From: Candidatus Nomurabacteria bacterium
GTDB taxonomy: Bacteria > Patescibacteriota > Minisyncoccia > Phycocordibacterales > UBA9973
Direction: 5' to 3'
NCBI GenBank assembly: GCA_016196605.1
Contig: JACPXJ010000045.1
Coordinates: 1 to 60,958, forward strand
DNA length: 60,958 bases
The translations under genes were made by a program, and so were the position numbers. The notes below the pieces were generated by a model. The model saw only the letters and a list, made by a program, of their open reading frames with translations, did not search any database and had not been told where the DNA came from. Positions 960 through 3,120 of the stretch are shown here, piece by piece; the stretch's first letter is position 1; each line of letters begins with the position of its first letter.

Positions 960-3120
960 GATCCAAAAGAGAATAAAAAAACTGCGTGATGAGATTGCAA
1001 GATTGCGGGATCTGTATCATGTCCAAAACGCGCCTGAAGTTACTGATGATGTGTATGATTCTCTCACCAAAGAGCTAAAGGCCTTGTTGAAGGACTATCC
1101 CGAATTCCAAGATGCTAACGCGATGGAGGAGAGGGTGGCCGGCAGACCGCTCGAAAAGTTTGAAAAAGTAAAGCATAAAATACGAATGCTTTCCTTAAAT
1201 GACGCTTTTTCTCCCGAAGAGCTATATGATTGGGAAAAAAGAATCAAAAAACTATTGCCCCCCTCTCCTTTACAAGGAGAGGGGCAGGGGGGTGAGGTGA
1301 ATTATTTTTGCGAAGCTAAATTTGACGGTCTGGCTGTGTCTTTGAGGTATAAAAACGGCAAATTTATTCAAGGCGCCACTCGGGGAGATGGTTTTGTCGG
1401 CGAAGATATAACGGAGAATCTTAAAACCATCAATTCCATACCTCTTTCTCTCAGTTCTTCAAGGTCGAACCTTGGGGATTCAAAAAGGTTCGACCTTTTC
1501 CCGCCGGAATACCTCGAAGTCCGGGGCGAAGCGTTGATGAGCAAGAAAACATTGTCAAGGTTGAACCTTGACAATGAAAAGGAGGGCAAGCCGCTTTTTG
1601 CCAATACCCGCAATGCGGCGGCGGGGAGCCTGCGGCAGCTCGATCCGAAGCTGGCAGCCATGCGTGAACTTGATTTTTTGGCCTATGACATAGCGGAAAT
1701 AGAATTTCAAAGGTCGAACCTTGGGAATTCAAAAAGGTTCGACCTTAAAAAACATTCAGAAAAACATCAATACCTCCGGACACTGGGATTTAAAGTAGAC
1801 GGGCACGAGGCAGTCTGTGCAAATTTGATTGAAGTAGTTTCTTTCATAAAAAAGTTTGAGAAAATCAGGGCGGACTTTCCTTATGGTACGGACGGTGTCG
1901 TGATATCGGTAGATGATTTGAAGTTGCAGGCTGTTTTGGGCGCTGTCGGCAAAGCCCCGCGCTTTATGGTGGCTTTTAAATATCCGGCAGAAAAAGCGAC
2001 AACAATCGTAAAAAACATTCTGGTCAATGTCGGCCGCACTGGGGTGCTCACCCCTCTTGCCGTGTTTGAGCCGACTCTGGTTGCTGGATCTTTAGTGGGG
2101 AAAGCCACTCTCCACAATATGGATCAGATCGAACGTTTGGGATTGCGCATCGGGGACACTGTGGTGATAGAAAAAGCGGGGGATGTCATTCCCAAGGTAG
2201 TAGAAGTGCTTATCCGCATGCGCACAGGGAAAGAAAAAAAATTTAGAATGCCGGATAAATGCCCGGCTTGCGGCGGAAAAGTGGAAAAAAGAATTACCAC
2301 CCCGAGCCCCTCCTTGACCAAGGAGGGGAGGAATCCCTCTCCCCCTGCCAAGGGGGAGTCCCGAAGGGGAGGGGGTCTTTCAGTTGCTTATTATTGCGTC
2401 AACCCCAAGTGTCGGGCGAAGGATGAAAGGTATTTGGAGCATTTTGTGTCAGTTTTTGAAATATATGAGCTTGGCCCAAAAATTTTGAGGCGGTTCAAGG
2501 ATGAAGGACTGATCACCGATGCCGCCGATATTTTTACGCTGGAGAAAGCTGATATCTCTCCCTTGGAACGTTTCGGAGAGAAATCGGCAGAAAACATTGT
2601 TACGGAGATAAATAATAAACGCGACATCCCGTTGTCGCGTTTTCTCTGGGCGCTGGGGATTCTACATGTAGGAGAAGAGACGGCTCGTAATTTGGCATTG
2701 CATTTTGGTACATTAGAAAAATTGATAGAAGCTGTGACTCATAATCAAGAAGAAATAGACAGTATAGAAGATGTCGGACCAGCGGTGCTAAAAAGCGTGG
2801 GTGATTTTTTCAAAGATAAAAATAATTTGAATTTTATAAAAAAACTGCTCAAGAATGGCGTTATAATCCAAAAAGCCGAAAAAGCAAAGAAGGGGAAGTT
2901 TACCGGACTTAATTTTGTTTTGACCGGCACACTTTCTAAAATGTCGCGAGAAATCGCCAAAGAGAGAATATTATCTCTTGGCGGTAAGGTGGTTGGTTCA
3001 GTTTCAAATAACACTTCTTATGTCGTGGCTGGGGAAGAACCGGGCTCTAAGCTAAAAACTGCGGAAAAATTAGGGATAAAAGTTATAAATGAGAAAGATT
3101 TTTTAAATATGGTAAACTAA
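946..3120 (+). CDS. ligA: NAD-dependent DNA ligase LigA (with four repeat-derived insertions)
   Basis: KxDG motif (EAKFDG), [16 protein letters not shown], 4-Cys Zn finger (CPACGG...CVNPKC), HhH region and C-terminal BRCT (FVLTGTL...). In-frame ATG at 946 chosen over the ORF-track start at 889. Confidence 0.93.
1258..1303. repeat. P element (GC-rich nested hairpin), in-frame in ligA
   Basis: cccctctcctt-tac-aaggagagggg followed by the tail caggggggtgaggtgaatt. Translated as [14 protein letters not shown]. Confidence 0.8.
1459..1498. repeat. Q element (13-bp stem hairpin), in-frame in ligA
   Basis: aaggtcgaacctt-ggggattcaaa-aaggttcgacctt, with perfectly complementary arms. Translated as [14 protein letters not shown]. 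Confidence 0.85.
1708..1750. repeat. Q element, second copy in-frame in ligA
   Basis: aaggtcgaacctt-gggaattcaaa-aaggttcgacctt, nearly identical to the 1459 copy. Translated as [15 protein letters not shown]. Confidence 0.85.
2292..2376. repeat. P element inverted pair, in-frame inside the ligA zinc-finger region
   Basis: aattaccacc...cccctcctt-gacc-aaggagggg followed by ctccccct-gcca-agggggag...gggagggggtc. Translated as [27 protein letters not shown]. Confidence 0.8.

Follow-up and report, generated by a model that had tools for sequence, protein, structure and literature searches.

The window analysed here is a stretch of 60,958 nucleotides from Candidatus Nomurabacteria bacterium, a member of the Candidate Phyla Radiation (CPR; Patescibacteria). 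This report concerns a small hairpin repeat, termed the P unit, copies of which lie in-frame within several genes of the window. The window has a G+C content of about 44% and a positive, monotonic GC skew. The genes that carry insertions of the P unit or of other palindromes, with identities assigned by Pfam, are the following.

889/949-3120, ligA
18950-21112, an SMC-like gene
28403-31612, rpoB
35595-37406, dnaG
49144-55536, a giant open reading frame (ORF) of 2130 amino acids whose sole Pfam domain is Peptidase_S74
56209-57534, tgt

Comparison of copies showed the repeat unit to be asymmetric. It is approximately 40-46 nt long and begins with a perfect hairpin of one pyrimidine arm and one purine arm (consensus CCCTCTCCTT-N3-AAGGAGAGGG), followed after 1-4 nt by a conserved, single-stranded tail, GGGGTGAGGT, which is extended to ...GAATT in Nomurabacteria. 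Units occur as monomers or as inverted dimers, and the dimers fold into longer 'nested' hairpins. A covariance model was constructed from 58 copies in other genomes, mostly from other phyla, whose consensus contains the conserved flank GGGGTGAGGT/ACCTCACCCC. The model was used to score and orient the copies in the window, which are listed here with their bit scores.

1257-1304, plus strand, monomer in ligA site 1, before the KxDG motif (57 bits, E 2e-16)
2290-2382, inverted dimer with tails outward, in the ligA zinc finger between the Cys pairs (fold -51.9 kcal/mol)
2290-2333, minus strand, unit 1 of this dimer (22.5 bits)
2339-2382, plus strand, unit 2 of this dimer (weak, 5.1 bits)
36134-36190, plus strand, nested unit in dnaG, before YDRFR (11.9 bits, model match 36149-36193)
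48571-48614, plus strand, intergenic monomer between mreC and the giant ORF (41.5 bits, E 2e-11)
49397-49493, tail-to-tail dimer in the giant ORF, frame open (fold -68 kcal/mol)
49397-49440, plus strand, unit 1 of this dimer (21.8 bits)
49444-49493, minus strand, unit 2 of this dimer (20 bits)
49847-49905, plus strand, P-like hairpin in the giant ORF with a 10-bp stem, a weak member of the family (only 7.2 bits, 49864-49878)
55218-55249, degenerate second hairpin in the giant ORF, before the next unit
55250-55299, minus strand, unit in the giant ORF with an 11-bp stem, frame open (34.7 bits)
56165-56201, plus strand, short intergenic P-like unit, 8 nt upstream of the tgt start codon (9.9 bits)
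56540-56595, minus strand, unit in tgt encoding a RPLPNLPLNKGEEKGGG-type peptide (13.9 bits, 56540-56583)

The best-scoring copy, in ligA site 1, has the hairpin CCCCTCTCCTT-TAC-AAGGAGAGGGG and the tail CAGGGGGGTGAGGTGAATT, in the full layout CCCCCCTCTCCTT-TAC-AAGGAGAGGGG-CAG-GGGGGTGAGGTGAATT. It is nearly matched by the intergenic copy at 48571-48614, which has the loop TAC and the tail GGTGAGGTGAATT in common with it. The dnaG unit consists of an outer stem, ACCCCCTCC/GGAGGGTGGGGGT, around an inner hairpin, CCTCCCCCTT-ATT-GAGGGGGAGG. The hairpin at 49847-49905 (TCTCCCCCTT-AAC-AAGGGGGAGA, with flanks ACCCCCT...AGAAGGGGT) is read in an open frame as ILPLNKGE, and the short unit upstream of tgt (TCCCCTT-GAT-AAGGGGGA followed by AGGGGGT) is missing at that position in the related locus L243. 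Four copies (13.9, 11.9, 9.9 and 7.2 bits) are marginal or weak, indicating that the family is heterogeneous. Where the tail was found without an exact core, the stem was still CCCTCTCC-like; the stem is therefore conserved in sequence and not for pairing alone. No Rfam family was assigned to the P unit at either gathering or permissive thresholds, with only hairpin noise below threshold; the matches above threshold were tRNAs and one riboswitch, all elsewhere.

Hairpins of this type were greatly over-represented in the window. The pattern CTCCTT-N2-6-AAGGAG was present 4 times (0.02 expected) and CCCCTT-N2-6-AAGGGG 3 times (0.04 expected), and a scan for perfect stems of 7 bp or more that pair a pyrimidine arm with a purine arm counted 10 hairpins compared to 0.12 in shuffled sequences, an excess of about 80-fold. 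Seven of the nine P copies in the window are inside ORFs and in-frame: two sites in ligA, one each in dnaG and tgt, and three in the giant ORF. The original prediction, made from the sequence of the window, had described nested GC-rich hairpins inserted in-frame into ligA, dnaG, tgt and the giant ORF, together with intergenic copies at 48571-48615 and 56168-56197. All of these hairpins are present, and the two intergenic ones correspond to the covariance model matches of 41.5 and 9.9 bits. Pfam bore out the identities of the three named host genes. Translation confirmed that the coding copies keep the frame open, including ILPLNKGE in the giant ORF and PLPNLPLNKGEEKGGG in tgt, and that the ligA copies lie directly before KxDG (EAKFDG) and, as an inverted pair, between the Cys pairs of the zinc finger. 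The definition of the unit as a nested hairpin alone had to be revised, since the conserved 10-nt tail belongs to it; what had been seen as nested hairpins are therefore two hairpin-plus-tail units in inverted arrangement, following the single/dimer logic of repetitive extragenic palindromic (REP) sequences.

LigA, DnaG and Tgt were each aligned with 120 orthologues, those of LigA being approximately 70-75% identical. Relative to E. coli LigA (2OWO), the window protein has extra residues at four places, two of which (before KxDG and between the zinc-finger cysteines) are accounted for by P units; E. coli LigA has an 8-residue gap opposite the site-1 P insert. All four sites were polymorphic in length among the orthologues (6-39, 8-38, 8-44 and 3-63 residues). 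At site 1, 54 of the 120 proteins had a short conserved loop, typically xNTKF, 48 carried the P peptide, whole or as a remnant, and the remaining 18 had other sequences. Decayed remnants such as VGGEV and RRGVGGEV were recognizable in some LigA orthologues. The zinc-finger site was occupied by no more than 10 residues in 38/120 orthologues and by unrelated families in others. DnaG showed KKPEDKSKA in place of the insert in about 100 of 120 orthologues, and the P insert of Tgt was missing from 117 of 120 and lies where Z. mobilis TGT has a gap in the alignment.

By these alignments the segments are insertions, as the original prediction had proposed: they are missing from the distant orthologues E. 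coli LigA and Z. mobilis TGT and from most close orthologues of DnaG and Tgt, and are polymorphic at every site in LigA. The inserts recur in separate assemblies (NCBI, JGI, ENA and Logan) and are thus not assembly artefacts. In an AlphaFold model of LigA, of mediocre overall confidence (mean predicted local distance difference test, pLDDT, 64), the four inserts were coil with pLDDT below 50 located between confidently predicted elements; at the zinc-finger insert the values below 50 covered residues 451-481. The model supports the view of the LigA inserts as low-confidence coil, and no finer detail.

One genome per species was scanned for CCTCTCCTT-N3-4-AAGGAGAGG, which yielded at least 120 loci. 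These were distributed among Cyanobacteria, Armatimonadota, Bacteroidota/Ignavibacteria, Chloroflexi and several CPR groups, with others in Verrucomicrobia, Nitrospirales, Binataceae and one Bathyarchaeia bin. The motif GG[GT]GAGG was present within 45 nt of the core in 124 of 138 copies: on the 3' side only in 49, only on the 5' side and in reverse complement in 43, and on both sides in 32. Outside the CPR the unit was mostly intergenic, with 11 of 121 copies deep inside long ORFs; the corresponding figures were 6/17 for loci from the CPR and 7/9 for the window. Core and tail were also found together on 34 viral contigs. One of these, a Mu-like phage fragment (L208, IMGVR_UViG_3300048592_001291) with genes for portal, Mu F, terminase and virion morphogenesis proteins, carries five tailed P units in 7.3 kb (at 1909, 3754, 4410, 6609 and 7218), three of them inside ORFs that include Mu F and terminase.

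Related loci showed that the same protein loop can be occupied in different ways. At LigA site 2, L124 and L125 have a P unit in plus orientation and L126 has one in minus orientation, and an unrelated palindrome, family 'a', occupies the site in the window, L244 and L245. Loops that hold differing P variants, differing orientations or unrelated families must result from separate insertion events. The pheT genes of two other Nomurabacteria contain an identical 37-nt P variant, CCCCTCCTTGTGGAGGAGGGGGCTGGGGGTGGTGATT (L001 21982-22002 and L125 18207-18227), which nearly matches the unit at 49402-49440 in the giant ORF of the window. Mobility of the P unit is inferred from this distribution. With regard to the original prediction, which had inferred a mobile family similar to the Rickettsia palindromic elements (RPEs), in-frame insertion by independent events was upheld, as were the existence of many further copies (in the window, related genomes, other phyla and phages), the persistence of the inserts in independent assemblies and their position in low-confidence coil of the LigA model. 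The likeness to RPEs stood as an analogy only.

The window also contains in-frame palindromes unrelated to the P copies and two Y1/HUH transposase genes, each with its own flanking palindrome; none of these was part of the original prediction.

1459-1500, family 'a' palindrome (AAGGTCGAACCTT...AAGGTTCGACCTT), in-frame in ligA site 2
1707-1750, family 'a' palindrome, in-frame in ligA site 3
20321-20364, perfect palindrome with a 20-bp stem, in-frame in the SMC-like gene
20693-20728, family 'a' palindrome, in-frame in the SMC-like gene
29028-29069, perfect palindrome with a 20-bp stem, in-frame in rpoB
38632-39368, plus strand, REPtron 1, with a Y1/HUH gene at 38684-39364 and the palindrome TGTCAAACATCGGGTGTTTGACA at 38632 and 39342
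44608-45341, plus strand, REPtron 2, with a Y1 gene at 44661-45314 flanked by AGTGGTCAACCTGGCAGGTTGACCACT, a third copy of which is at 59166-59192
56861-56955, hairpin of 95 nt from a further family, the second tgt insertion (residues ~211-250, missing from Z. mobilis TGT)

Family 'a' is unrelated to P; its ligA copies are read as SRSNLGxSKRFDL and are missing from 44 of the 120 LigA orthologues. The position of the second Tgt insert varied from 9 to 80 residues among the 120 orthologues, with several recurring peptide families. The REPtron 1 protein matched Pfam Y1_Tnp (31.5 bits) and, weakly, NCBIfam REP_Tyr_transpos, and contains the HUH and YxHxNP motifs; a further copy of its palindrome lies in-frame inside the transposase gene at 38854. 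The Y1 protein of REPtron 2 is a paralogue of the first (tblastn, 28% identity, E 9e-23). We examined the best 80 of more than 500 metagenomic loci with Y1 homologues (L127-L206), which represent one Y1 subfamily. Most were in the REPtron layout, each with a different palindrome, and the REP of one of them (L198, TACTTGGCGGTTGGACCGCCAAGTA) matched the rpoB insert at 29028-29069. Together with the two REPtrons of the window, this match indicates that REPtron-type machinery exists in the lineage and that its repeats include at least some of the coding palindromes.

The RPEs of Rickettsia are characterised by palindromic repeats that lie in-frame (PMC10969869). They are approximately 100-150 bp long, are found only in Rickettsia and Wolbachia, code for a conserved peptide and carry a terminal CGTC tag (PMC3733652). 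Like RPEs, P units occur in-frame in many unrelated genes of a reduced genome, often essential ones, at points that the protein fold can accommodate; their presence varies between relatives, and no dedicated transposase is known. Unlike RPEs, they measure 40-46 nt (80-100 nt as dimers), are read in several frames, carry the GGGGTGAGGT tail and extend to many phyla and to phages. CGTC was found at neither end of the P unit, which is set apart from RPEs by length and tag, and the likeness holds as an analogy.

The resemblance to REP and REPIN sequences (PMC3733652, PMC6006769, PMC3116915) lies in a short stem-loop, of 20-40 bp in REPs, with an end tag that occurs singly or in head-to-head and tail-to-tail dimers. 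Intragenic in-frame REPs are on record chiefly from genes for replication and repair, a DNA ligase among them (PMC3733652; Di Nocera et al.), and REPs have been described in-frame inside tnpAREP genes (Quentin et al., PMC6006769). As in systems of REPs and their associated tyrosine transposases (RAYTs), the genome carries Y1 genes with their own palindromes, some with in-frame copies inside the gene. The REP tag GT[AG]G or CGTC at the foot of the stem was not in the consensus of the 58 P copies. Unlike REPs, the P copies of the window are mostly intragenic rather than extragenic, and the spread of the family is cross-phylum rather than species-specific. P units also differ from REPtrons in flanking neither the two Y1 genes of the window nor any of the best 80 of more than 500 homologous loci, whereas families b and c of the window do flank Y1 genes.

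Two further classes were considered. In PMC3733652, the terminal inverted repeats (TIRs) of some TIRYT Y1 genes ('TIRtrons') are reported to share GGGGWSAS. The P tail GGGGTGAG fits this sequence, a degenerate 8-nt motif that makes the match weak evidence and a lead only, and no TIRYT gene bracketed by P units was found among the at least 120 loci of the genome scan. MITEs (miniature transposable elements with inverted repeats; Correia, ERIC, Nezha and others) are 70-300 bp long, with the terminal inverted repeats of a parent insertion sequence (IS) and target-site duplications (PMC10969869). P units are similarly small, non-autonomous and repeated, and MITEs are occasionally intragenic and can form in-frame fusions. 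P dimers do have inverted ends, but unlike MITEs they showed no parent IS or duplication in the flanks inspected.

Given three published precedents (RPEs, intragenic REPs and the REPs inside tnpAREP genes), the phenomenon is of a known kind; the family, and the occurrence in a CPR lineage, are new. Also new are the density, a single ligA having four inserts that belong to two families, the behaviour of the loops as hot spots, the occurrence across phyla and in phages of a unit made of a hairpin plus GGGGTGAGGT, and the strict DNA conservation of resident copies. Searches of the literature by sequence and by CPR repeats found no description of the P unit, with the small dispersed repeats of cyanobacteria (Elhai et al. 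2008, Genome Res 18:1484; cited in PMC3116915) as a possible prior description of the cyanobacterial copies. Many P copies were found in Cyanobacteria, and mobile repeats of 21-27 nt nested in hairpins were reportedly described in Nostoc by Elhai et al. in 2008.

The explanation that we favour, and consider probable, is that P is a small, REP/RPE-like, non-autonomous mobile hairpin that is tolerated and translated in permissive protein loops and is probably moved by an HUH-type enzyme. P copies have landed repeatedly in this lineage. In the compact CPR genome, which offers little intergenic space, the surviving copies are those located at the few points where an extra 10-30 residues can be tolerated. 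These points are loops at the surface of LigA, DnaG, Tgt and PheT and of large surface proteins, and several unrelated palindrome families reuse them. According to this explanation, the inserts would be transcribed and translated as coils rich in Pro/Ser/Leu and Lys/Glu/Gly. Mobilisation is the weakest step, and could be performed in trans by a hairpin-recognising, single-stranded DNA enzyme of the HUH/Y1 type. The unit also occurs in phages, which may transfer it from one host to another.

Several observations weigh against this explanation. No P-type hairpin flanked a Y1 gene, whether the two of the window, the best 80 of more than 500 homologues or the at least 120 loci of the genome scan. 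Inspection of the flanks revealed no target-site duplication or defined junction, and in the three cases studied 5-8 native codons appear to have been replaced by the insert, which is not a simple addition to them. The covariance model oriented five copies plus and four minus on a single replichore, a small sample in which strand bias of the IS200/IS605 type was not seen. Elements derived from IS200/IS605 (PATEs) also insert 3' of a fixed tetra- or pentanucleotide, and no target motif emerged for P. Finally, orthologous copies were almost invariant in DNA despite lying in synonymously saturated host genes, and were mostly closer to each other than to copies of the same genome, unlike neutrally decaying selfish DNA.

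This last observation was quantified from codon alignments. The host genes had a DNA identity of approximately 67-70% and a third-position identity of 0.41-0.45, which is essentially saturated. The ligA site-1 element was identical at 42 of 42 nt in the window, L001 and L126, and at 40/42 in L124. L125 had the same DNA with +/-1 indels, resulting in a different peptide, PPLLNKERGLGGEV. The dnaG element was identical at 54/57 nt in L241 and 52/57 in L242, with all changes in loops, and the tgt element at 45/48 nt in L243, where the loop alone differs. For family 'a', the orthologous site of L244 and L245 agreed with the window at 35 of 36 nt. When third positions of the elements were pooled, 47 of 49 were identical (binomial P ~2e-14). 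Synonymous differences resumed at the codon adjoining the ligA element, indicating that flanking DNA was not co-transferred; short-patch recombination as a source of the identical copies was therefore not supported. As the same DNA can encode a different peptide and third positions are retained, the sequences indicate that conservation acts on the DNA of the element and not on its peptide.

There are two readings of this near-identity: long-standing copies kept by selection, or repeated renewal at the same permissive codons. Orthologous copies usually share loop and spacer to a degree that copies of the same genome do not, which leans toward old copies. Conversely, the spacer CTA is common to two copies in L125 and the loop TAC to two copies in the window, which leans toward renewal. 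LigA similarity was 0.78 within P carriers, 0.79 within empty alleles and 0.78 between the two groups, and Fitch parsimony required 27 steps for the site-1 state compared to 34 in shuffles. Since the 120 LigA sequences are near-equidistant and their tree is star-like, the scatter of site-1 states does not decide between old and renewed copies. That the hairpin-plus-tail is a sequence-specific nucleic-acid module, the same across phyla and phages, with either a cis function on DNA or mRNA from within coding sequence or a homing-type re-occupation of the same codon by a mechanism new to REP-like repeats, is a possibility to which we give limited credence.

The main rival to the mobile hairpin is a functional nucleic-acid signal under host-level selection, for example a pause, processing or nicking site that a conserved factor would read on DNA or mRNA, with the peptide as a tolerated by-product. 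We regard it as unlikely, yet it would account for the near-identity of orthologous copies amid saturated third positions, for changes confined to the loops in dnaG and tgt while flanking codons differ up to the junction, and for the L125 element, in which DNA is kept and peptide is not. The loop and spacer common to orthologous copies, which differ among copies of one genome, are also consistent with such a signal, as are the invariance of the unpaired tail, the constancy of stem and tail sequence across phyla, and the similar DNA-level conservation of family 'a'. However, many close orthologues lack the element or retain decayed remnants, and unrelated families replace P at the same loops. 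Copies are also found in intergenic DNA, phage genes and giant surface proteins, and where they lie relative to gene features follows no shared pattern. There was no link to start codons and no Rfam family, and no candidate reader protein or RNA was identified.

Alternatively, the elements may be young everywhere, an active element re-occupying the same permissive codons by site-preferring re-insertion or homing. The lack of correlation between LigA similarity and site-1 state, the reuse of loops by independent insertions, and the shared CTA spacer and TAC loop would all follow from this, and 'empty' LigA alleles keep the NTKF motif, which loss of the element could not restore. We nevertheless judge it improbable, because an identical junction and an identical replacement of native codons would be needed every time, no site-specific enzyme is known for P, and most copies are closer to their orthologues than to the other copies of the same genome; the star-like LigA tree, moreover, makes the scatter weak evidence.

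DNA-uptake signals of Neisseria and Haemophilus are enriched in genome-maintenance genes. A role of P as an uptake or recombination signal would be in keeping with its presence in ligA and dnaG, with the other palindrome families in the SMC-like gene and rpoB, with the type IV pilus cluster adjoining ligA in relatives, and with the strict conservation of the sequence. This role is very improbable: about 10 heterogeneous copies in 61 kb amount to a density far too low and a sequence too variable, the sequence is shared by unrelated phyla and by phages, unlike uptake signals, which are specific to a lineage, and many orthologues lack the element. The idea of ordinary protein loops, specific to the lineage, that arose in situ and are similar by compositional coincidence fits their position in variable surface loops but is hardly credible, as the same 40-46 nt of DNA appears in unrelated genes, intergenic DNA, other phyla and phages, is read in different frames, and forms hairpins at about 80 times the frequency in shuffles.

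Returning to the favoured explanation, a mobile hairpin tolerated in permissive loops, the inserts constitute hidden length variation in the CPR marker genes LigA, DnaG, RpoB, Tgt and PheT. They disrupt domain detection, as the Pfam domain of the LigA zinc finger was called in only some orthologues, and should be masked in alignments and models. Ultra-small, gene-dense genomes would still carry active hairpin repeats and Y1 transposases, and their few 'safe' protein loops would become hypervariable hot spots, providing a natural map of where essential enzymes tolerate insertions. The P unit would extend the REP/RPE class by a third type of tag, one that crosses phylum boundaries and rides on phages. 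If the near-perfect DNA conservation proved to reflect function or homing, the view of such repeats would change.

Two possible general properties of the unit were assessed and rejected. P copies are open in only 2-5 of 6 frames, which is no better than the other palindrome families and gives no stop-free-frame advantage. The purine arm and tail resemble Shine-Dalgarno sequences (AAGGAG, GAGGTGA), and we therefore counted ORFs of at least 100 amino acids starting within 40 nt after a tail. Only 15 of 190 tails preceded such a start, about 4 of the 15 at Shine-Dalgarno-like spacing, which does not support a general role as a Shine-Dalgarno donor.

Half-units were observed in some genomes. In Rivularia and another cyanobacterium (L048 6197 and L070 4542), tandem direct repeats of the purine half-unit, AAGGAGAGGG-TTA-GGGTGAGGT, occur without the pyrimidine arm inside ORFs of approximately 1800 amino acids. 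Peptides at LigA site 2 such as SLTRRGVGGEV likewise seem to rest on 'solo' purine units. Based on these tandem and solo copies, the basic repeat may be the purine unit rather than the hairpin.

The giant ORF has a G+C content of 0.50-0.55, compared to approximately 0.44 in the rest of the window, and carries at least three P insertions; in L243 a comparable giant ORF adjoins tgt, with a different gene order. The 20-bp stems in the SMC-like gene and rpoB would, in mRNA, be substrates of RNase III, the gene for which is located at 18253-18948. Two tandem paralogous ORFs of 150 amino acids (53-505 and 507-959) have identical AT-rich palindromes near their starts (62-89 and 519-546); the first has a prepilin N-methylation motif, and in relatives a cluster of type IV pilus genes precedes ligA. 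Two related palindromes, GCCGAGATA...TATCTCGGC, lie at 48528-48561, just after the mreC stop codon, and at 56106-56143, downstream of the giant ORF, and may be terminators or another repeat family.

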